A DNA stretch of 32,000 bases from Patescibacteria group bacterium (GTDB lineage Bacteria; Patescibacteriota; Minisyncoccia; UBA6257; HR35): assembly GCA_030549845.1 (NCBI GenBank), contig JAUQQN010000005.1, positions 1,080-33,079 on the forward strand. The letters are read 5' to 3'. The notes under the pieces were generated by a model, which did no database searches, was not told where the DNA came from, and saw only the letters and a program-made list of their open reading frames with translations. Of this stretch, positions 3,387 through 31,325 are shown one piece after another; the first letter of the stretch is position 1; each line of letters opens with the position of its first letter. The translations under genes and the position numbers were made by a program.

Positions 3387-4037
3387 TTAGATTATTAAAT
3401 TCTCGTGTTTCTTATCTCTACAAGAGCATCTTGGCGGCGTATCCATAACTAAAAAAGTATGAAGCATTTGTGCTCTTTGAATTAAATGCTCTAAATACCA
3501 ATCAGAGTAAAAGTGTGGGAATTCTTTAAGTTTTAAACCACCATCTAAATCATATCCAGCATACAATAGTACTCCTTTTACTCTTTTTAGCGCAGCTAAA
3601 TAAAAATTAAGCTGAAGTTTGTGCGCAAAATGTGGATTTGGCGGGACAGTTCTTACGTGTTTAAATTCCCACACCTCCTCATCAACTCCTTTTCCCCTAA
3701 TAGCATCTGCGTGTCCAATAATCTTTATTTTCTCGCCAGCAACATCAACGTCTATAGAGCACTCAACCTCAACCCTATCCCAGAAATTTTTTCCTTCCCT
3801 ATCTTTTAATGATTGGATCAGTCTATGAAAAACTACGCCACCAGCCAATAAAAGAACAATATCGTCTGGAATTTCTTCCGGCTTTTTACCATCAAAAAAT
3901 CGATAATAATTAAACTGCTTCCTTGTGCAGCTCCACGCCAAAACAGATGGTCTGTAAATTCCAATCTTCACTGGCTGATTATTCTCGCCGAAATACTTTT
4001 TTCTACAATAATCCGCGAGTAATTTTTGTATTGTCAT
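3387..4037 (-). CDS. Cas4/RecB-like PD-(D/E)XK exonuclease
   Basis: GHADAI...EVWEFKH...QLNFYL matches the D...ExK...QxxxY order. There are N-terminal C.RK.YF / SCTRKQF cysteines and a C-terminal PPRCSCRDKKH cysteine cluster, as in Cas4-type Fe-S nucleases. The SD AGGGGTGA lies 6 nt before the ATG. Confidence 0.6.
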   Translation of the reverse strand: MTIQKLLADYCRKKYFGENNQPVKIGIYRPSVLAWSCTRKQFNYYRFFDGKKPEEIPDDIVLLLAGGVVFHRLIQSLKDREGKNFWDRVEVECSIDVDVAGEKIKIIGHADAIRGKGVDEEVWEFKHVRTVPPNPHFAHKLQLNFYLAALKRVKGVLLYAGYDLDGGLKLKEFPHFYSDWYLEHLIQRAQMLHTFLVMDTPPRCSCRDKKHENLII

Positions 4038-6543: not shown

Positions 6544-9332
6544 GTTTGTAAAGGAATTCTTTTCCATGTATTAGTATCAACACAAACATATAAATAATCA
6601 CTATCCCATGCTATATCGCCCTTATTACCAGAAGATCCAGATGTTGGTGGTGTTTTGGTATTTCTTAATCTAATAGTATCTGAATCTATATCTAATTTAG
6701 CCGTTGGGGAAGTTGTCCCAATTCCAACATTACCACTTGTATCAATTGTTAATCTTGAAGATGATGATGTCCTATCTATAATAATAAATTTACCCTGTCC
6801 CTCTGCGGCAGTACCCGCAGACGAAAATAATTCCCAAACCCTACCACCACTTAACGCTGTTGCATCTATAGAAATTTTAGCGCCATATAATCCACTTGGT
6901 CCTTGCTTGACTCGTAAATGTGTATTATCTCCAGCTATGTTTACGCTTTTTTCAATGTGTAGCGGTGAATTAGGTGACGTTGTTCCTACACCAACATAAC
7001 CAGATGGTAAAATAGTAAATACTTCATTCCAATACGATGAGTCATCTGGAGTAGAAATGTTTTGATTAGAAAAATAAAATCTTATACCACTATTATTTGA
7101 ACCTATTTTAATTCTACCATTATTAGCCGATCCTGATGTAGTAAAGGTTAAAATATCCAATCCTTTATTATTTTGACAAGATATAAATCCTGTTTTTTCA
7201 TTACCAACTTGCCATATTGGACCCCTAAAGAATAAACCATCATAAGTTACTCCAGAATTTGTGTTATAAATTCTAAGACTTATATCGCTTCCGTAGATAG
7301 TTAATTTATAATTAGGAGATGTTGTCCCTATTCCTACATTACCAGTTATTGCTGGATATAAATTACTTCCACTTACTACCCACGGATCCTGCGCGCCCAT
7401 AGCATGAATTGCTCTTGATAAAACTTGGAAACCAGCTATTTTAATTTCACTCTGATTTGGTTGAAATTCACTAACAGTTAGTTTTATATAACGAGCCATA
7501 ATCCAGCCAACATGGTGCTTAACTCTTGGATTAGTATTATTAGAAACAGAAACTAAAGTAGTCCAGTTAATATTATCTGTACTATATTCAATTGTATAAC
7601 TTTTTGGTATAAATTGATAGCCATCCTGCCAGTTAGTACCGAATGTTATATATGTTATAGCATCAATATTAGATCCTAAATCTACTGTCATACTAGCGGG
7701 AACACTTGTAACGTGCCACTGAGAACCATTGTTCCTGTAAGTTGGACCACCACCATATAAAACACCAGACGTTATTGTAGCCGATTTCCCCCTAGCAACA
7801 TCCCATAAACCAGATATTTGAACTAAACTATCAGATGTAATAATACCACTAACATCTAATTTGGATTGTGTATTAACTGTTCCTATTCCTATACTACCAT
7901 TAACAATAAGATTATTTGTTACCCTTGTATCTCCATTTACGTCAAGTTTATAAGATGGTGTCGTAGTTCCTATTCCTACATTACCAGTTGATGTAATTCT
8001 TAGTCTTTCGTTTAAACCATTGGAGTCTCGACTAGATATTGATAAAAAGCTGTTTGAAGAACCAGGAGATACGCTATTTCCTCCATATATTAATTCAATA
8101 CGCCCACCCATTCCAGCACCACCCCTATCTTGTGCGCTTAGAATTAATGCAGCCCCAGTAGTTGAGTCGTATCCACTGTACAAATCTAATGACCACGATG
8201 TATCTGACCTCCTTATTCCCCTGTTTGTTGAACCGCTACCCCTAACTATTATTCCGCCACCAATATCTAGTTTTTCTTCTGGTGTTATTACCCCAATACC
8301 AACATTACCATTTCCCAAGATAACCATAGCATCAATTTTATTTGTCCACCCATTTTGTAAATTTGTAATAAAATGATGGGCTATAGAAGTTCCTGTTTTA
8401 TCTGATGAGAGAACTAAGCGTTCATCGTTTGTTGGAATATTACCCCTTACCTGGCTAGCTGATTCCCCGCCACCTATTACTGTAAGACCACCAGAACCAA
8501 GAAATAATGAATTACCACCCTGATCTTCGTCAAAACTCATCCACGTAAAAGCATAATTTGTACCTTGGCTTATTAAATTACCACTATGTCTTATATCTCC
8601 AACAACATGAAGCCTAGAATTTGGTGTGTATGTGCCGATACCAAGTCTTTTATTTGTATTATCCCAAAATAAATTTTCGTTTCCACCTATAGTATTAGAA
8701 GATGTTCCAAATGCAATTTGACCAGAAGAAATTGATCCAATTATTGGCGGAATTTTCCAACTTACATTACCCTGGTCATCAGATGTTAAAACCTTACCAT
8801 TACCAGGATTACCACTTGTTATTTTTAGTTGATTAGAAATTATTAATGGCGATGAAAATATATATTCTCCCGGCGTACTATTTTTACCAAATTCACCACT
8901 AGATACATAATCAGCCTTCACATTAGTTGGTGGAACAATTCCCAAAACCTTAATATTGCTTATTTGAAATTTTAATTTGTCTATCAATTTTTTTATGTTT
9001 TCTATATCTTCTAAAATATCTTTTATTTTTTCATTTGAATCATTTTTTATTTTTTCAATTTCTTCTTGAATAGAAATAAGTAAATTATTTAAGGATAATT
9101 CAAGAGCATTTAATTTTATCTCTAGTTGTTTTTCGCTTTTTTCTTCTTGTTTTTTAAATTTTTCTCTATTTTCTTCAATAAAAACCTTAATAATGTTGTA
9201 AAGATTTTCTAAATCACTTTTTAGTGCCTCGCCATCTTTTATTAATTTATAAACACTGCCCTCATTTTCTTTCAGTTTTTTGTTGAGTTTATTAAATACT
9301 TCTTTTAGTTGATTTACAATAACCTCACTCAT
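6537..9332 (-). CDS. Tail fibre / receptor-binding protein with coiled-coil N-terminus, repeated G-N-V-G-I-G-T motifs and a discoidin (F5/8 type C)-like domain
   Basis: Seven copies of the (G)NVGIGTTxPxxKLxV motif are present. WHVTSVPASMTVDLGSNIDAITYITF...YTIEYSTDNINWTTL...ARYIKLTV fits the discoidin pattern. The C-terminal GDIAWDSDYLYVCVDTNTWKRIPL is a typical fibre end. Confidence 0.7.
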   Translation of the reverse strand: MSEVIVNQLKEVFNKLNKKLKENEGSVYKLIKDGEALKSDLENLYNIIKVFIEENREKFKKQEEKSEKQLEIKLNALELSLNNLLISIQEEIEKIKNDSNEKIKDILEDIENIKKLIDKLKFQISNIKVLGIVPPTNVKADYVSSGEFGKNSTPGEYIFSSPLIISNQLKITSGNPGNGKVLTSDDQGNVSWKIPPIIGSISSGQIAFGTSSNTIGGNENLFWDNTNKRLGIGTYTPNSRLHVVGDIRHSGNLISQGTNYAFTWMSFDEDQGGNSLFLGSGGLTVIGGGESASQVRGNIPTNDERLVLSSDKTGTSIAHHFITNLQNGWTNKIDAMVILGNGNVGIGVITPEEKLDIGGGIIVRGSGSTNRGIRRSDTSWSLDLYSGYDSTTGAALILSAQDRGGAGMGGRIELIYGGNSVSPGSSNSFLSISSRDSNGLNERLRITSTGNVGIGTTTPSYKLDVNGDTRVTNNLIVNGSIGIGTVNTQSKLDVSGIITSDSLVQISGLWDVARGKSATITSGVLYGGGPTYRNNGSQWHVTSVPASMTVDLGSNIDAITYITFGTNWQDGYQFIPKSYTIEYSTDNINWTTLVSVSNNTNPRVKHHVGWIMARYIKLTVSEFQPNQSEIKIAGFQVLSRAIHAMGAQDPWVVSGSNLYPAITGNVGIGTTSPNYKLTIYGSDISLRIYNTNSGVTYDGLFFRGPIWQVGNEKTGFISCQNNKGLDILTFTTSGSANNGRIKIGSNNSGIRFYFSNQNISTPDDSSYWNEVFTILPSGYVGVGTTSPNSPLHIEKSVNIAGDNTHLRVKQGPSGLYGAKISIDATALSGGRVWELFSSAGTAAEGQGKFIIIDRTSSSSRLTIDTSGNVGIGTTSPTAKLDIDSDTIRLRNTKTPPTSGSSGNKGDIAWDSDYLYVCVDTNTWKRIPLQTW

Positions 9333-10842
9333 GATTAAGTTTTGATTGGAATTCTTCTATTAGGCTTTGTATTGATAATATTTCTTTTTCTAATGATTTA
9401 ACCATATAAGAATTTATAAGCATTGATTTTATGGTGTGGTAATCATATAACGGCTTAAATTCAAATTTTTCTTCTAAAATATTTTCAAAAACCCACCCAA
9501 TTCTAGTGGCTATGTTATTTTTATAGCCTTTATCAATTATATCAAAAAAGCTTCTTTTATAAAAATCAACAAATTTAAAGTTAAAATCTATAAGACTGTC
9601 TGCTTTTAAAAAAGCTAATTGCCAATCATCATCTGATCCAGTTACTACAGCTAAATTTTTATCATATCCGCACGATACTAATTTATTACCAACTCTTTTA
9701 ACATCCCAAAGCCAGATGTCTTTATTTTTGATATCTGTTAATATGGTTGAATTTTGTAAGGATAATTTTGCATATTTTTTGTCTGGCAATATGTTAAAAA
9801 TTCTAAAACTTGCCCCAAATTTTAATGGTTTTAATTCATAAAAAGGAACACCATTTTTAATTGCTATAAAATAATCACCAACCCTAGAAAATGTAGATAG
9901 CTTATTAAAAACACTATTCCACCCCTCCCTATTTGGACAAAATTCGCTAAAGTAAAATTTATCTCTTGAGGGAGAATACATTACTCCAATATCCCAAATA
10001 ACAAACTCGTTATCTCCCCTAAGGAACATTTCTTCCATTGGCCTAAAAAACATATCATAAATTCTTTCTGCTTGTTCTTGTTTTTTAATCCAAAAAATAA
10101 CAGATGCCGCATCTCCGGTTTGAAAACCACTATTTGCTGGACCAATTGGTTTAAGTTCTATATCTATGCTCATACCAATTAATTTTCTATCCCTAATAAC
10201 TATTTCTGGGACAAACTCAATTAAATCATCTATTTTCTCTTCTAATATAAATCCACCATCTTCATATAATGTTTTATCTTCTTCTAAAATATTAATCACC
10301 TCGTCTCTTGCAATTAGTGGAATATCTGATAATGGAACAAATGTTTCTGCGTTTATATTTTTACCCTTTACAACCCATACCTTATCCGTATTTTTTAAAA
10401 ATTCTTTTGCTTCTTCTACTTTATTAAACTCATGAATTTCTTGTTTGGCAAATAAATTGTGATTCTTAAAGATGTATTCTTTTGCTATTTCTCTATTTGT
10501 TTCAAACAAAAAATCTTGTTTTGTTGGAAATAGACCGAAATAACCCATTTGTTTTATTTGATTAGCATAAGGATAAAGAAAATTAAAATCACAAAATATT
10601 AAATAATCATCTCTTTTTCTCTCCTTATTTAAAAAATTAATAACATCGTCAATTCTCTTTTTTTCTATTATTCCATCATAAAGCTGTAATCTTCTTTCTT
10701 TTTCCTCGGGAATTTCATCTGGTAAATCTTTTAATTCCTCTACTTGCCCAACTATTACATCCCATCCCTCTTGTTGCAATTTAAGAGCTATTGGCATACC
10801 ATGACCATCATATGTAATTAAGACAAATTTTGGCTTATTCAT
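9325..10842 (-). CDS. PurD (glycinamide ribonucleotide synthetase)-like ATP-grasp protein with an extra C-terminal region
   Basis: Blocks are collinear with remembered E. coli PurD: KFVLITYDGHGMPIALKLQQ (VLVIGNGGREHALAWK), FPTKQDFLFETNREIAKEYIFKNHNL..VWVVKG, GFILEEKIDD..FVPEIV, and FYFSEFCPNREGW (VIEFNCRFGDPE). The gene has 8-nt start/stop overlaps with both neighbours. Confidence 0.5.
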   Translation of the reverse strand: MNKPKFVLITYDGHGMPIALKLQQEGWDVIVGQVEELKDLPDEIPEEKERRLQLYDGIIEKKRIDDVINFLNKERKRDDYLIFCDFNFLYPYANQIKQMGYFGLFPTKQDFLFETNREIAKEYIFKNHNLFAKQEIHEFNKVEEAKEFLKNTDKVWVVKGKNINAETFVPLSDIPLIARDEVINILEEDKTLYEDGGFILEEKIDDLIEFVPEIVIRDRKLIGMSIDIELKPIGPANSGFQTGDAASVIFWIKKQEQAERIYDMFFRPMEEMFLRGDNEFVIWDIGVMYSPSRDKFYFSEFCPNREGWNSVFNKLSTFSRVGDYFIAIKNGVPFYELKPLKFGASFRIFNILPDKKYAKLSLQNSTILTDIKNKDIWLWDVKRVGNKLVSCGYDKNLAVVTGSDDDWQLAFLKADSLIDFNFKFVDFYKRSFFDIIDKGYKNNIATRIGWVFENILEEKFEFKPLYDYHTIKSMLINSYMVKSLEKEILSIQSLIEEFQSKLNHE

Positions 10843-26292: not shown

Positions 26293-27645
26293 TTAAATAT
26301 TATACCACTCTTTTTGAAAATTAAGAAGACTTTTTATTTTGTCTATATCAACAAAAAATGTTAGAGCAAGGGCATCGGCAACGTCTGGAGATGGAATACC
26401 CCTTTTCCTTAAAATGTCTTTTGGTATTATCATTATTTTTTTATCAGAATTTTTTTTATATTTAATGTTTAAAATTTGATTAAATGAATCATCTTTAATT
26501 AATTTTCCTCCCCCCAAAATCCAATTTCTTAACTTCCAGTATAGCTCCGCCCTAATATTTAAAAAATCTGGCTCAGATGATTTATTTCCCAAAACAATCG
26601 GAATTAAATTTAAAAAGCCGATTTCCCTTAATCTATCTACAACACCCCTTCCAACACCAATTGCATCTATACAAATTTTAATAATTGGATAAATTTTTGA
26701 TAAATTAAAAATTAAAGTAATAATTTGCATCGTATCTTCTAATTTTTGATTAAATACTACTTTTGCTAATAAATTATTTCTTAAAACTATTGCTGTTTTA
26801 TCTCCTCCGGCCCCAACATCAACACCAAGTATGTTTTCTGAGTTTTTAAAAATTTTTTCAAATTCCTCGCCAAATACAAATGCATTTTCTAGCTCTTTAG
26901 ATGTAATCAATGAAATAAAGCCCGACTCATCCATTTCACCCTCGAAAGCATACCAGTCACCATCCAAAAATGCCCCCCTTTCTTTTTCTGGTAAACTTTT
27001 AAGTTGCTCAAAATATTCATAATTCAAATATGGATTATCGTGTGGTAATGCCTTAATAAAAGCTATTTGATTCCTATATTTCTCAAACTCTGATGGAAGA
27101 TTTTTTTCAACAAAAAATTGCCTTACCCATAGCATATGTTCTCCAATTGGATTTGATGCGCAGATAAATTTTGTATCTTCAATACCAGGATATCTTAATC
27201 GAGTTAAAAGAATCTTAAAAGTTTCAAATGGTATTTGTGTTATTTCATCAATTGCCATTAAAGCAAATTCAGCAGAAAGATATTTTTCTGGTTCATCTAG
27301 GTTCCTAAAACTAATAATTGCTCCCCCATATTCTTCTTTTAAGTGAAATTCCTTTTTTTGCTCATAAAAGTCTCCTAACCATTCTGGAAATTCTTGTCTA
27401 ATATACTTTAAATGTCTGTCTTCTAATTCCTTATAAGTTTTACAAAATAAGCCAATATGAGTAGAAGCGCCATATTTTTTAGCATAATACAAAGCATAAT
27501 ATAAAGAAATCCATCTCAGTGCATAACTTTTTCCACTCCCAGCACTCCCCCCGTACAAAACAAATTTATTTTCTTTTGTAGCCCGTAAAAACTCAATCTG
27601 TTTTTCAAAAAAATTTGCTAACCGAAAAAAGTTTATTTTATTCAT
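26293..27645 (-). CDS. terL: Terminase large subunit
   Basis: It has Walker A (LYGGSAGSGKSY), Walker B-like (LMAIDEITQ) and C-terminal nuclease-domain acidic motifs (LGVDVGAGGDKTAIV, SPDVADALALT). The ATG at 27645 is preferred to the TTG at 27654. Confidence 0.85.
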   Translation of the reverse strand: MNKINFFRLANFFEKQIEFLRATKENKFVLYGGSAGSGKSYALRWISLYYALYYAKKYGASTHIGLFCKTYKELEDRHLKYIRQEFPEWLGDFYEQKKEFHLKEEYGGAIISFRNLDEPEKYLSAEFALMAIDEITQIPFETFKILLTRLRYPGIEDTKFICASNPIGEHMLWVRQFFVEKNLPSEFEKYRNQIAFIKALPHDNPYLNYEYFEQLKSLPEKERGAFLDGDWYAFEGEMDESGFISLITSKELENAFVFGEEFEKIFKNSENILGVDVGAGGDKTAIVLRNNLLAKVVFNQKLEDTMQIITLIFNLSKIYPIIKICIDAIGVGRGVVDRLREIGFLNLIPIVLGNKSSEPDFLNIRAELYWKLRNWILGGGKLIKDDSFNQILNIKYKKNSDKKIMIIPKDILRKRGIPSPDVADALALTFFVDIDKIKSLLNFQKEWYNI

Positions 27646-27875
27646 ATATACCAAATAAAAATTATATTAAATTTTTGCCCAAAATTGTCTTATAATTGAT
27701 GTTTTTTTTATTCCCTTGTACCACCCTACAAGAGATTAAATTAATCATAAATTATAACTCAAAATAAAAGAATTTTTCCAACTAGCTTAATCAAATTTCA
27801 CATATTTTTATTTTTAAAAACAAATCTAAACAGATTAGATTTTTAAAATCTAATTTTTATTTTTTTTTAAAAAAA

Positions 27876-28286
27876 TTAAATCTCAATTATTTTTTCCTCT
27901 TTATCTTTTTCCCCCTCTTCATTTTCTTTTTTAAATTTTTCTTTTGCTGGTTCGGTTAAATCTATAAGTAGCTGCTTTTGAATAACCTCCAGTTGTTCTG
28001 GTGCTTTCCCAAATAGTCTATCCATGAAATCCCGCCAAAATTGATAATCTCCTTTAAACATCCTTTTAAAACCCAATTTAATTATTTCAATTTTTGCTTT
28101 ATCCGGATTTTTGTTTAAATTCAAAGCTTCCGCTACTTCTTTCCAAGCTTCCCTAAAATAAGTTTCAAAATTTTTTCTTCCTTTTGGCCTACCGTGCGGA
28201 TTCCCCGAAACCCCGGGGGGAAATGGCCTCCCTCTTAAGATTTTTCCAGTTTTACTAATAATTTTGTTTTGATTTTGGCCCTCCAT
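27876..28286 (-). CDS. terS: Terminase small subunit candidate (DUF5681-like GNPxGRPKG motif)
   Basis: PPGVSGNPHGRPKGRKN is the signature seen in DUF5681 small-terminase-like proteins. It is the first gene of the late operon and lies upstream of terL. Confidence 0.55.
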   Translation of the reverse strand: MEGQNQNKIISKTGKILRGRPFPPGVSGNPHGRPKGRKNFETYFREAWKEVAEALNLNKNPDKAKIEIIKLGFKRMFKGDYQFWRDFMDRLFGKAPEQLEVIQKQLLIDLTEPAKEKFKKENEEGEKDKEEKIIEI

Positions 28287-28464
28287 TTAATTAATTTTTT
28301 TAATTTTCTCAGCCCCCCCTCCTGGGATTTTAATTCTTTAACTCCTTTTTCTGGTTAATTTTTTCCATTTTTACCCTTTTTTAATTTTACCATAATTTTT
28401 AATTTTTTTTAAGTCACCATAAAATTTAAATTTTTTATAAATCCTAGGAAAAATCCCCAAAAAT

Positions 28465-28630
28465 GTTTCCAATGAACTAGTGTAGGATTGAAAGACTTAT
28501 TTTTATTTTAATAATATAAAAAAATCTTTTGTTTCCAATGAACTAGTGTAGGATTGAAAGGAAATTAAAGCAAGTGTAGATAAAATTACACTAACACTAA
28601 GTTTCCAATGAACTAGTGTAGGATTGAAAG
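28465..28630 (+). CRISPR. Orphan mini-CRISPR array: 3 identical 30-nt repeats, 2 spacers (36 and 40 nt)
   Basis: The repeat GTTTCCAATGAACTAGTGTAGGATTGAAAG occurs at 28465-28494, 28531-28560 and 28601-28630. The spacers are 28495-28530 and 28561-28600. The 3' ATTGAAAG sets the orientation. No cas gene lies in the window. Confidence 0.7.
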
Positions 28631-28798
28631 ATGCTTGGAAGAGGTTAAAGATTTTATTTTCAAATGGTAAGGGGATTGATTTAACATTGAGCTAATCCTA
28701 AAACTAACATTATAGTAGAGCTTGCTTTTTTATCATGGAATTCTTTCTGTTTTTGCTCAAGATATTTTTACTTTAATTTTAATTTTCTAATCTTTAAG

Positions 28799-28845
28799 TT
28801 ATCCACAGTCCATGTGCTTGACAAAAAAAATTTGAGGAATATAAT
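28799..28845 (+). promoter_or_regulatory. Promoter P1: TTATCCACA box, 10 nt, TTGACA, 16 nt, TATAAT
   Basis: The box is at 28799-28807, the -35 at 28818-28823 and the -10 at 28840-28845. Both hexamers match the sigma-70 consensus. Confidence 0.65.
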
Positions 28846-28877
28846 TATTTAAAGTTAAAAAAATAAAAATTAAAAAA
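28799..28877 (+). repeat. Left arm of a 79-bp imperfect inverted repeat (partner 31099-31177)
   Basis: Hand alignment shows that the box, -35, -10 and a 32-nt post -10 block (TATTTAAAGTTAA[A/G]AAAATAAAAATTAAAAAA) are identical apart from one base. The spacers are partly diverged. Confidence 0.7.
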
Positions 28878-28920
28878 TTTGGCTGCCACATGGTATTTAA
28901 AGAATACCGAGGTGGCCAAA
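28878..28920 (+). promoter_or_regulatory. Long imperfect 5'-UTR stem-loop 4 nt upstream of the ATG at 28925
   Basis: The outer stem is TTTGGCTGCC / GGTGGCCAAA (two G-T pairs). The inner stem is GGTATT / AATACC with a 5-nt loop. Confidence 0.45.
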
Positions 28921-28924
28921 AAAT

Positions 28925-29320
28925 ATGAATGAAAAAGAAAGAAGAAAAATTAAAGTTGAAAAAATTAATTTTAGGGGCGAGGAAGTGTATACAATCAAAC
29001 TTAGAAGGTGGCTCTCTCACGGTAAGGAGTGGGCAGCCCTAATTGTAAACGGAGTAATAACTAGTGATGGTAAAAAAATAATAAATTTAGAATTTTGCCC
29101 GAAAATAATTTTTGAGTGGTCTCATTCAGGAAAAAACGGAACAACTATAGTGAAATTGTTAGGAGGAGGATTTTACAAAATCTCAAATCCTGATGGTGTT
29201 TACGGAAAAGACGCCATTGGCTATTATTTCTGGGATGGAAAAAGTGATGAAATGAAAGAAGTGGATGAAGACTTTGCAATTATTTACGCAGATACATGGT
29301 CTTATCACATCCAAAAATAA
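28925..29320 (+). CDS. Hypothetical protein (131 aa)
   Basis: The ORF is driven by P1. No family was recognised. Confidence 0.5.
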   Translation: MNEKERRKIKVEKINFRGEEVYTIKLRRWLSHGKEWAALIVNGVITSDGKKIINLEFCPKIIFEWSHSGKNGTTIVKLLGGGFYKISNPDGVYGKDAIGYYFWDGKSDEMKEVDEDFAIIYADTWSYHIQK

Positions 29321-29349
29321 CTAAGGTATAACTTAACTAAGGTATAACT
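29318..29349. repeat. Perfect 16-bp tandem direct repeat x2 (TAACTAAGGTATAACT) plus a partial third copy
   Basis: The copies are at 29318-29333 and 29334-29349, followed by CAGGTATC. The first copy contains the TAA stop of 28925..29320. Confidence 0.8.
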
Positions 29350-29412
29350 CAGGTATCTGCTTTATAACCGCTAACTGTTTTTGGCCTGTTTCTTTTATAT
29401 TTTCCAAAATTT

Positions 29413-29456
29413 TAAATTTTATTTTTTAAGATTCTAAATTTTATTTTTTAAGATTC
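29413..29456. repeat. Perfect 22-bp tandem direct repeat x2 (TAAATTTTATTTTTTAAGATTC)
   Basis: The copies are at 29413-29434 and 29435-29456. The second copy contains the stop and last codons of the minus-strand gene 29448..30578. Confidence 0.8.
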
Positions 29457-30578
29457 TGCTGTAAGATTTTTATATTCCTCTTCAGTAATTTTAAATTTCC
29501 AAGCAAATGCGGAATAGACACTATTTATATTTTTTGGAATAAATGAAATATATTCTTTCCCTGTGCTTATATCTTTATATTTTAAAAATTTAACAAAATC
29601 ATTTGTATTTTCATTTAAAACCATCCACAACTCCCCCCTCTCATTTTTATCTTTTAAAACAGCCAATTTTTCATACTCAAGTGCTTTTTCTAATCCGCCA
29701 ATAAATTTTGTAAATATAACTCTTTTTTCTACATTTCTTATTCCTAATAAATTATAAATACTAATATTTTTATTTAAAATAAGAGAAGACTCAAGCACCT
29801 CTTTGTCTGAGTTCTCATGTAATAATAAATATTTAAAATCTATTTTATTTTTTTCTAACAAATTTTTTAAAATGTTTAAATCATTAACATCTTGAAAGTT
29901 AAAATAAAAATAAAATGATTGCATAAAAAAATCTGAATTAGAATTAAATAAATTATATAAACTTTCTTTATTTATTAATAATTTCATAACCCCGCTTATG
30001 TGCATTTTTTTATTATTAATAATTTCTATTCCAAGCATGTCAACAACATCTACATTCTCAATAATTACTTCTTTTGTGCTTACTTTCTTTTTCTCTCTTA
30101 AAACCGGCAAAAATGATAAAACATTACCCCTTTTTATATTAATATTTTTAATTCTTTTATTTTTATTTTCAACAAAAAGCATTAAATTATCAAACCCCTC
30201 ACCCTCTATAACCTGAAAATTTGAGAAAACCTTAAAAGATTTTTTTATATTATTAAAAGAAAAATAAGTATATATTTTTTTATCGACCGTCAGCTGTGCA
30301 GTTTTTGAATAAACATCATTTAAATAAATTTTTAAATAGCTACTTAAAACAGGTAAATTATTATCTATTTTAATATCTAGCTCTCCTGTCTCTAGCCCCT
30401 GCACAACAACATTTTTAACATTTAAAAAATTACAATATAAAAACTCATTAACTTTTTCATTATAATTTTTCCCTGTTAAATAAACATCTTTTATATTTTC
30501 CTCATAAAATTCTAAAACTTTACTTTCTTTTTTACTTGTATAATTTTCATCTTTTATTAATATTTTTTTATCAAGCAT
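29448..30578 (-). CDS. Hypothetical protein (376 aa), N/K/I-rich
   Basis: This is a long ORF. The C-terminal GELWMVLNENTNDFVKFLKYKDISTGKEYISFIPKNINSVYSAFAWKF is reminiscent of a conserved domain I cannot name with confidence. Confidence 0.5.
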   Translation of the reverse strand: MLDKKILIKDENYTSKKESKVLEFYEENIKDVYLTGKNYNEKVNEFLYCNFLNVKNVVVQGLETGELDIKIDNNLPVLSSYLKIYLNDVYSKTAQLTVDKKIYTYFSFNNIKKSFKVFSNFQVIEGEGFDNLMLFVENKNKRIKNINIKRGNVLSFLPVLREKKKVSTKEVIIENVDVVDMLGIEIINNKKMHISGVMKLLINKESLYNLFNSNSDFFMQSFYFYFNFQDVNDLNILKNLLEKNKIDFKYLLLHENSDKEVLESSLILNKNISIYNLLGIRNVEKRVIFTKFIGGLEKALEYEKLAVLKDKNERGELWMVLNENTNDFVKFLKYKDISTGKEYISFIPKNINSVYSAFAWKFKITEEEYKNLTAES

Positions 30579-30586
30579 GTTTTTTT

Positions 30587-30621
30587 AATCCTTAAATCCT
30601 AATTTTTAGGATTTAAGGATT
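30587..30621 (-). promoter_or_regulatory. Perfect 16-bp stem-loop 8 nt upstream of the ATG at 30578
   Basis: AATCCTTAAATCCTAA TTT TTAGGATTTAAGGATT. On the minus strand it is followed by AAAAAAAC and then the ATG. It has no T-tract, so it is not a classical terminator for the upstream gene. Confidence 0.5.
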
Positions 30622-30635
30622 TAATTATTAATAAA

Positions 30636-31028
30636 TTAATCATTTATATTTTCCCAATCATCTGTCAAATAATTAAAATTTCTCTCACATAAAACAGCAT
30701 ATAAACCCTCCTCAACCTGTATATCTTTATGCTCTTCATGTTTTAAAATCCCCCTACAGTTTTCTAATTTTATAAAAATTATATTTTCATTTAATTTTAA
30801 ATCACTTCCCTCAAAAACATAAAAATTTTTATCACTTACTAAAATATGTTTATGCCCGCCCGCACCTTCCTTTATTACAAACTCATTTATCTTATTTACC
30901 ATTTTTTTAATAATAAATCTTTCCTCATTAAATCTTTCAAGTTTATCATTAGAAAATTCATTTTCAAAAATTTCATATAATAATACATCTCCATGCCTAT
31001 AAATTTTTCTTTTTTTTTCATTATTCAT
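30636..31028 (-). CDS. Hypothetical His-rich, possibly cupin-like protein (130 aa)
   Basis: The motifs are YRHGDVLL, GAGGHKHILV and KHEEHKDIQVEEGLYAV. The fold assignment is tentative. Confidence 0.3.
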   Translation of the reverse strand: MNNEKKRKIYRHGDVLLYEIFENEFSNDKLERFNEERFIIKKMVNKINEFVIKEGAGGHKHILVSDKNFYVFEGSDLKLNENIIFIKLENCRGILKHEEHKDIQVEEGLYAVLCERNFNYLTDDWENIND

Positions 31029-31035
31029 ATTTTTT

Positions 31036-31072
31036 TGGATTAATCAAAATGCTGAGCATTTTAATTAATCCA
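31036..31072 (-). promoter_or_regulatory. 17-bp 5'-UTR stem-loop 7 nt upstream of the ATG at 31028
   Basis: TGGATTAAT(T/C)AAAATGC arms surround a 3-nt loop. The single non-Watson-Crick position is a G-U pair only in the minus-sense RNA. Confidence 0.55.
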
Positions 31073-31098
31073 TTTTTTAATTATTTTCTTATTTTAAT

Positions 31099-31177
31099 TT
31101 TTTTAATTTTTATTTTCTTAACTTTAAATAATTATATTCTTAAAATTTTGCTTGTCAAGTACGGAGATTGTGGATAA
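31099..31177 (-). repeat. Right arm of the 79-bp inverted repeat (partner 28799-28877)
   Basis: The reverse complement aligns with 28799-28877, as described for the left arm. Confidence 0.7.
31131..31177 (-). promoter_or_regulatory. Promoter P2: TTATCCACA box, 10 nt, TTGACA, 16 nt, TATAAT (minus strand)
   Basis: The box is the complement of 31169-31177, the -35 the complement of 31153-31158 and the -10 the complement of 31131-31136. Confidence 0.65.
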
Positions 31178-31278
31178 CTTAAAAAGTTATTTTATATTTT
31201 TTTACCCCCTCTATTCACCCCCCACCAGTTTATAAATTTTTTTATTGCTTATAAGATATAAGATGGATACCGAATAAG

Positions 31279-31325
31279 TTATGCACAATTCAAAAACTTG
31301 ACAAATAAAAAATTGGAAATATAAT
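31279..31325 (+). promoter_or_regulatory. Promoter P3: TTATGCACA box, 10 nt, TTGACA, 16 nt, TATAAT
   Basis: The box (one mismatch) is at 31279-31287, the -35 at 31298-31303 and the -10 at 31320-31325. It is divergent from P2. Confidence 0.6.

Follow-up and report, generated by a model that had tools for sequence, protein, structure and literature searches.

Short CRISPR arrays that lack cas genes have been described in viruses, where they use the Cas proteins of the host against related viruses (PMC6858448, PMC11656645). The Saccharolobus portogloboviruses SPV1 and SPV2 carry intergenic arrays of one or two spacers with host-type repeats; a spacer matches a close relative from the same habitat, the carrier itself is mutated at the orthologous site, and only a short distance separates array and target (Medvedeva et al., 2019, PMC6858448). 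Promoter-bearing, host-like leaders are present in the SPV arrays, for which reciprocal targeting and spacer turnover have been shown (PMC6858448). Leaderless phage mini-arrays were reported by Faure et al. (2019) and, as far as they are summarized in two later papers (PMC6858448, PMC11656645), their repeats are identical to those of the host and their spacers target nearby genes of related phages, not of the carrier. Host-type repeats on viruses without cas genes also occur as Racrs, which consist of a single repeat without a functional spacer placed right after a promoter (Camara-Wilpert et al., 2023, PMC10651486), and multi-spacer, cas-less viral Cracr arrays, with degenerate repeats and spacers that pair partly with host cas or toxin promoters, rely on host Cas proteins as well (Liu et al., bioRxiv 10.1101/2024.10.29.618823).

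The cas-less, virus-borne mini-arrays directed against related viruses constitute the best-supported class for the locus presented here, which lies in a window of 32,000 nt (the whole stretch of DNA analyzed) from a source contig of 33,079 nt. Our preferred interpretation, to which we assign a probability of roughly 0.55, is that a phage carries a mini-CRISPR array without cas genes, with repeats originating from the type I-B locus of its ultra-small Patescibacteria host, and uses it against sibling phages. The features on which this interpretation is built are listed in Table 1. The sequence-only reading of this DNA had described three identical repeats separated by two unrelated spacers, and exact copies on the plus strand bear this out. 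No other copy with up to three mismatches was found elsewhere in the 32-kb window, and none of 100 shuffled sequences contained one. Both spacer lengths fall within the range of the host array (35–48 nt, median 37), so that the locus has the near-identical direct repeats of 23–47 nt, the regular spacing and the unique spacers of similar length that are expected of a CRISPR array. A degenerate fourth repeat at about 28658–28679 was considered and rejected, since 382 of 1000 shuffles align equally well; the array thus comprises exactly three repeats and two spacers. The search of Rfam gave no match at the gathering score, with CRISPR-DR families matching below threshold only, and the repeat RNA is predicted to be essentially unstructured. 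The repeat of Pyrococcus furiosus, in the form that we presume to be correct, agrees with that of the phage in about 24 of 31 alignment columns.

Table 1. Positions of the array and of related features in the window
Feature	Position	Strand	Remark
Cas4-family PD-(D/E)XK nuclease ORF	3387–4037	-	PHROG 1706, E = 2e-9; 4ic1_A, E = 5e-6
DUF5681 protein, putative small terminase by position	27876–28286	-	Opens the late operon, which diverges from the array
AT-rich, non-coding region of 178 nt preceding repeat 1	28287–28464	+	23% GC compared to 30% for the window
Variable accessory module (array, ORF131, ORF376, ORF130 and their promoters)	28315–31321		Swapped in L017
CRISPR repeat 1, GTTTCCAATGAACTAGTGTAGGATTGAAAG, 30 nt	28465–28494	+	Same sequence as 23 exact host-array repeats and as the first repeat that follows cas2 in 8 host contigs
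Spacer 1, 36 nt	28495–28530	+	36/36 to sibling phage L007, 35/36 to own ORF376
CRISPR repeat 2	28531–28560	+	Exact copy
Spacer 2, 40 nt, one open frame (EIKASVDKITLTL)	28561–28600	+	Target searches without match
CRISPR repeat 3	28601–28630	+	Exact copy; independent Logan contig L006 ends 29 nt into it
Perfect sigma-70 consensus promoter (TTGACA-16-TATAAT) of ORF131	28818–28845	+	Consensus match
ORF376, holding the spacer-1 protospacer	29448–30578	-	DUF6745-like C-terminal domain
Own imperfect copy of the spacer-1 target	30234–30269	-	35/36, mismatch at spacer position 11, 5' flank TAT

The element carrying the array had been read as a phage, and the gene content agrees with this. A long operon on the minus strand encodes the DUF5681 protein, the large terminase subunit (TerL), an SU10-type portal and adaptor, the major capsid protein, an internal virion protein, lysis proteins with LysM and M23 domains and a tail fibre. 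The window has a GC content of about 30%, the tRNA search returned no match and no integrase was recognized in it. The array was correctly placed in the gap between the start of the late operon, i.e. of the putative terS, and the promoter of ORF131. The 5' part of the same putative terS contains a G/C-rich, partly palindromic stretch (CCCCGAAACCCCGGGGGGAAATGGCCTCCCTC, 28200–28235), which scores as a terminator-like hairpin on the plus strand and is the target of host spacer H02. Another side observation concerns the junction of the convergent ORF131 and ORF376, where an exact tandem duplication, TAACTAAGGTATAACT in two copies, is found at 29318–29349. With respect to ORF376, the C-terminal 110 or so residues align with a domain common to more than 100 proteins of varied length; Pfam DUF6745 is matched by 34 of 37 aligned members of this family, ORF376 itself scoring below threshold, and the function search gave nothing beyond this DUF6745-like domain.

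The claim that no cas gene is visible in the window holds in part. There is no gene for an effector, Cas6, Cas1 or Cas2, but one distant Cas4-family nuclease is encoded, and it is the only cas-like gene in a phage genome with a two-spacer array. Its PHROG match carries the annotation 'CRISPR/Cas system associated', the match to TIGR00372 stays below the cutoff, and the structural match 4ic1_A, named only 'Uncharacterized protein' in the PDB file, is presumably the Sulfolobus Cas4 SSO0001. The possibility that the phage protein is a copy of the host Cas4 was rejected, as the two have no sequence similarity. In the related phage contig L017 the two ends of the window are joined across about 1.5 kb, and this synteny suggests a complete genome with no room for a hidden effector module.

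Regarding the origin of the repeat, an exact-match scan of one genome per species located it 23 times on a contig of the MAG 'Patescibacteria group bacterium SRBZ-1.bins.45' and also at the edge of a contig of a Saccharibacteria MAG. In the former MAG, contig JAUQQM010000007.1 bears an array of 24 repeats, the last one degenerate, directly downstream of cas1-cas2, and ends inside cas4; its repeat is identical to that of the phage at 30 of 30 positions. Eight further host contigs end at the first repeat after cas2, and two additional host pieces were recovered by a metagenome scan. Contig L011, one of these eight, with a Cas2 99% identical to that of the MAG, displays the order cas7-cas5-cas3-(333-aa ORF)-cas4-cas1b-cas2-leader-exact repeat. 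Its cas7 matches TIGR02585 (type I-B) with 121 bits against a cutoff of 73, its cas1b matches TIGR03641 with 467 bits against a cutoff of 304, and its cas3 combines an HD domain with a helicase. Since an exact copy of the repeat follows this operon, and the 30/30 identity holds beside cas genes both in L001 and L008 (cas1-cas2) and in L011, the phage repeat is assigned on the basis of its sequence to a type I-B system. The orientation of the array in the host (cas2, leader, GTTTCC...GAAAG, degenerate last repeat) also fixes the transcribed strand.

The sequence-only reading, which had regarded the repeat as one of the Cas6-processed type I/III kind borrowed from a host, was right in kind. The accompanying cas genes are of type I-B; Cas6 itself falls outside the host contigs, which are truncated and start inside cas7, so that cas6 and cas8 are missing from the recovered gene set. 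The expected genome with this repeat beside cas genes exists in the same sequencing run as the phage: run SRR21619497 yields both a 100%-identical 2.8-kb phage piece and a host cas1-cas2 contig. The sample names SRBZ and Gxs refer, we assume, to the Tengchong hot springs. The 333-aa ORF between cas3 and cas4 (L011 3703–4704; also L012 2670–3671) has no Pfam or NCBIfam match, and this is an unusual place for a gene without assignment. The Saccharibacteria contig edge (L002, 50% GC) contains at positions 1–164 the end of an array adjoining housekeeping genes, with one exact repeat followed by two slightly degenerate copies ending in GAAAC. The repeat family could therefore span Patescibacteria lineages of very different GC content, through horizontal transfer, or the contig could be mis-binned.

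The CRISPR array of the host is heavily directed against this phage. Seventeen of the 23 spacers of the host MAG match the window at a minimum of 82% identity; five of them are perfect, two have one or two mismatches and the rest go down to 82%. The protospacers of the five perfect and the two near-perfect spacers are CA-flanked, and overall a 5'-CA flank on the spacer-sense strand is found at 14 of the 17 (P = 5e-16), with CT at only two. Such a flank is what a PAM-selecting type I system would leave, and it points to an active type I system that depends on a PAM and is aimed at this phage. All but one of the 17 protospacers cluster near the mini-array and the accessory module, in a segment (27272–31168) that makes up 12% of the window (P = 4e-14); the exception is at 459–497. 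The pattern resembles the outcome of primed adaptation, or of phage DNA entering preferentially from one end. The strand bias of the host protospacers was not significant either around the array or around the self-protospacer (P = 0.25 and 0.13). At several of the targeted sites two or three spacers coincide, either on opposite strands or as variants of one another. Other host spacers have better matches in the sibling and in more distant relatives than in the window.

Concerning the targets of the phage spacers themselves, that of spacer 1 was found in another phage, so that the expectation of protospacers came true for this spacer. The sibling phage L007, from another run of the series that also contains the host, carries the exact spacer-1 sequence and is 93% identical to the window by BLAST (91.9% with gaps) over 2.2 kb. 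Given the full match in L007 and the single mismatch in the phage's own copy inside ORF376, 1.7 kb from the array, spacer 1 is to be attributed to the sibling lineage and not to this genome. The flank of the own copy, TAT, differs from the NCA of the host's targets, which is the likely PAM. The flank in the sibling is TCT, which likewise differs from the NCA at 14 of 17 host targets, and thus L007 itself may resist cleavage; with a synonymous change to TCA, the flank would fit NCA. We also considered whether the differences in the flank and at position 11 argue for escape mutations. This argument was dropped, given that at least two differences occur in 51% of the 39-nt segments compared between the phage and its sibling, as the background of about 92% identity predicts; with two differences expected by chance, 'escape' is no more than consistent with the data. 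Searches of IMG/VR returned zero matches both for exact spacer 1 and for a degenerate repeat pattern. For spacer 2, no target was detected in the window, in the 26 loci or in IMG/VR (three exact sub-patterns and a back-translated peptide pattern), and comparison with phage and plasmid collections gave chance-level matches only.

The stretch upstream of the array had been called leader-like. It is indeed AT-rich, and any promoter of the array would have to lie in it; yet it shares no homology with the leader of the host, and no plus-strand promoter matching at least 9 of 12 consensus positions was found within it. The search for a host-like leader or trailer at the phage array gave only low-complexity matches of up to 14 nt, and the first repeat is thus not preceded by a promoter-bearing leader of the kind seen in CRISPR arrays. 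Transcription of the array is for these reasons an assumption of our interpretation. Besides the promoter of ORF131, which is downstream of the array and cannot drive it, two more perfect sigma-70 consensus promoters (TTGACA-16-TATAAT) are present at 31158–31131 on the minus strand and at 31298–31325 on the plus strand; neither of these drives the array. The promoters of ORF131 and at 31158–31131 are embedded in a cassette of about 80 nt, with 81% identity between the two copies, which is targeted by the host spacers H12, H13 and H23.

Neither the array nor any repeat-like sequence was found in 11 related phage loci (L003 and L017–L026), defined by a DUF5681 (putative TerS) protein 63–87% identical or by a TerL at 44%. 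In most of these relatives the DUF5681 gene follows a methyltransferase gene on the same strand. In L017 (29.9 kb), positions 7676–9977 hold an N6/N4 DNA methyltransferase and a 240-aa ORF in place of the accessory module, between flanks that are 85–92% identical. Methyltransferases are typical anti-restriction genes, and the site is a hotspot of accessory genes, some perhaps for counter-defence. Given this replacement and the absence from relatives, the array is part of a swappable module and appears to have been acquired recently. It is known from one phage genotype only, and with none of the 11 relatives carrying it there is no sign of conservation or spacer turnover.

If our preferred interpretation is correct, the array would be transcribed on the plus strand in the infected cell, and the host Cas6 would cut each repeat 8 nt before the spacer, releasing two crRNAs with the 5' tag AUUGAAAG. 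Both could then load into the type I-B Cascade of the host, which would direct Cas3 against co-infecting siblings that possess the protospacer together with the PAM, resulting in superinfection exclusion. The phage's own target would be spared by the missing PAM-like flank and the one mismatch. In favour of this scheme are also the co-occurrence of phage and host in one run, the fitting spacer lengths and the short distance between array and target, which other viral mini-arrays show as well (PMC6858448). Weighing against it are the missing host-like leader and promoter match, the TCT flank in L007, the chance-level differences in the own copy, the unmatched spacer 2 and the restriction to one phage genotype. 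The identity of the repeats, the type I-B genes and the phage-directed spacers of the host, the match of spacer 1 to a sibling and the lack of effector genes in the phage are the observations behind this scheme, from expression onwards a conjectural one.

A different use of the same crRNAs is conceivable, namely that the array acts at the RNA level as an anti-CRISPR or decoy, similarly to a Racr, with transcripts that soak up host Cas6 and Cascade and dilute the phage-targeting crRNAs. The content of the spacers would then be secondary, and this is compatible with exclusion of siblings. The phage was assembled from the host's own run in spite of the five perfect and two near-perfect CA-flanked spacers held against it, and under such heavy immunity some counter-defence is to be expected. 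Type I-F interference has been found to be reduced both by a Racr and by an ordinary non-targeting crRNA (PMC10651486), and the module that contains the array is the one holding a methyltransferase in L017. However, the Racrs described so far each consist of one isolated repeat unit directly behind a promoter, while the present array has three perfect repeats and full-length spacers, one of them phage-derived, and lacks a clear promoter; in addition, no known acr gene was recognized near the array. We regard this alternative as unlikely, though a plausible benefit, either in addition to exclusion or in its place. Equally unlikely in our opinion is the broader proposal that the main selected role is counter-defence, instead of or besides conflict with siblings, by means of multi-copy crRNAs outcompeting those of the host for scarce Cascade; if true, the phage could thereby maintain itself in a population of Patescibacteria with five perfect spacers against it. 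The near-self crRNA (35/36, no PAM) could also feed primed adaptation, which would fit the location of 16 of the 17 host protospacers within about 3 kb of the self site. Somewhat more doubtful is passive capture, in which a repeat-spacer-repeat-spacer-repeat fragment of the host, with spacers derived from siblings, would have recombined into the phage and persisted as a neutral or short-lived passenger. The full identity of the repeats to those of the host suggests recent acquisition, the array is leaderless and missing from all 11 relatives, and spacer gain by recombination with host arrays has been proposed for leaderless phage mini-arrays (PMC6858448). Spacer 1 moreover resembles spacers acquired by the host, three of which target the same gene. 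Against this, neither phage spacer recurs in the set of 37 spacers obtained from the host (L001, 23; L004, 11; L005, one; L002, two), and the flanks of the array match no host spacer, which leaves the crossover points unexplained by homology between spacer and protospacer. Passive capture would in any case be compatible with use of the array.

The other explanations appear far less probable than those above. A regulatory function of the Cracr type, in which a spacer pairs partly with a host cas or toxin promoter and makes Cascade repress the host's own immunity genes, would account for the missing target of spacer 2, and it has some precedent, given that viral multi-spacer arrays are known for types I-C, I-E and I-F and single Cracrs are predicted for type I-B (bioRxiv 10.1101/2024.10.29.618823). 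We nevertheless consider it highly improbable: the repeats are perfect and not degenerate, spacer 1 matches a phage gene along its full length, and the first 9 nt of neither spacer had a CA-flanked match in the recovered host DNA, in which the cas operon begins inside cas7. Hardly any credence is given to an assembly chimera, or to a role of the repeats outside CRISPR, for instance as a pac site or as iterons to which TerS binds. In favour of these, an assembler can be misled by CRISPR spacers that are identical to phage DNA, and the repeats are situated just upstream of the putative terS, a frequent location of pac sites. However, the independent k-mer assembly L006 runs through 2.8 kb of phage sequence without a branch into repeat 3, where it stops after 29 nt, and phage sequence is present on both sides of the array in the 33-kb contig. 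Moreover, an identity of 30/30 to the host CRISPR repeats cannot be coincidence. The conservation that pac or iteron sites would require was not encountered either, as such repeats are missing from all 11 relatives that share a homologous DUF5681 protein or TerL; this alternative had been named by the sequence-only reading as one that would overturn the CRISPR call.

To our knowledge, CRISPR-Cas is rare in bacteria of the Candidate Phyla Radiation (CPR), and their phages are known almost only from metagenomes. The locus provides an unusually complete picture at the level of sequence, with a host type I-B system selecting a 5'-CA flank, a heavily targeted phage and a family of siblings. The repeat, the two spacers, the TCA, TCT and TAT flanks and the cas genes of the host are reagents with which exclusion of competitors and/or blunting of host immunity could be tested. 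Our literature search retrieved no earlier report of such an array in a CPR phage, the contents of the catalogue of Faure et al. aside. The kind of system is already known, and the locus reveals no new kind.

When set against the systems described at the outset, the array resembles those of SPV1 and SPV2 in its small number of spacers, its host-type repeats, its intergenic location and the lack of cas genes, as well as in a spacer that matches a close relative in the same habitat and a target close to the array (PMC6858448); its own orthologous site differs too, though to an extent that background divergence predicts. It differs from them in that it has no host-like leader, is represented by one genotype and includes one spacer without a matched target; furthermore, it is carried by a tailed, SU10-like podophage of a bacterial host (Patescibacteria, type I-B). 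With Racrs it shares host-type repeats on a virus without cas genes, but it is regular, with full-length spacers and no clear promoter (PMC10651486). Cracr arrays are likewise multi-spacer and cas-less and use host Cas proteins; for their partial pairing with host cas or toxin promoters (bioRxiv 10.1101/2024.10.29.618823), no counterpart was found in the recovered host DNA. The nearest host-phage pair is that of the hot-spring Roizmanbacteria, also a CPR host with type I-B, whose podophages have 31–35 kb (~33% GC, ~33 kb) and in one case encode a Cas4-like protein, as is the case here; no phage-borne CRISPR array was reported in that study (Chen et al., 2019, PMC6509639). The leaderless mini-arrays of Faure et al. 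(2019), as far as later accounts describe them, have the same host-identical repeats, the same lack of a leader and what appears to be the same direction of targeting, toward nearby genes of related phages and not of the carrier (PMC6858448, PMC11656645), and are thus the best fit among known systems. By re-using the repeat of its host next to a spacer matching a sibling, the present array extends the virus-borne mini-arrays to a phage of the CPR.
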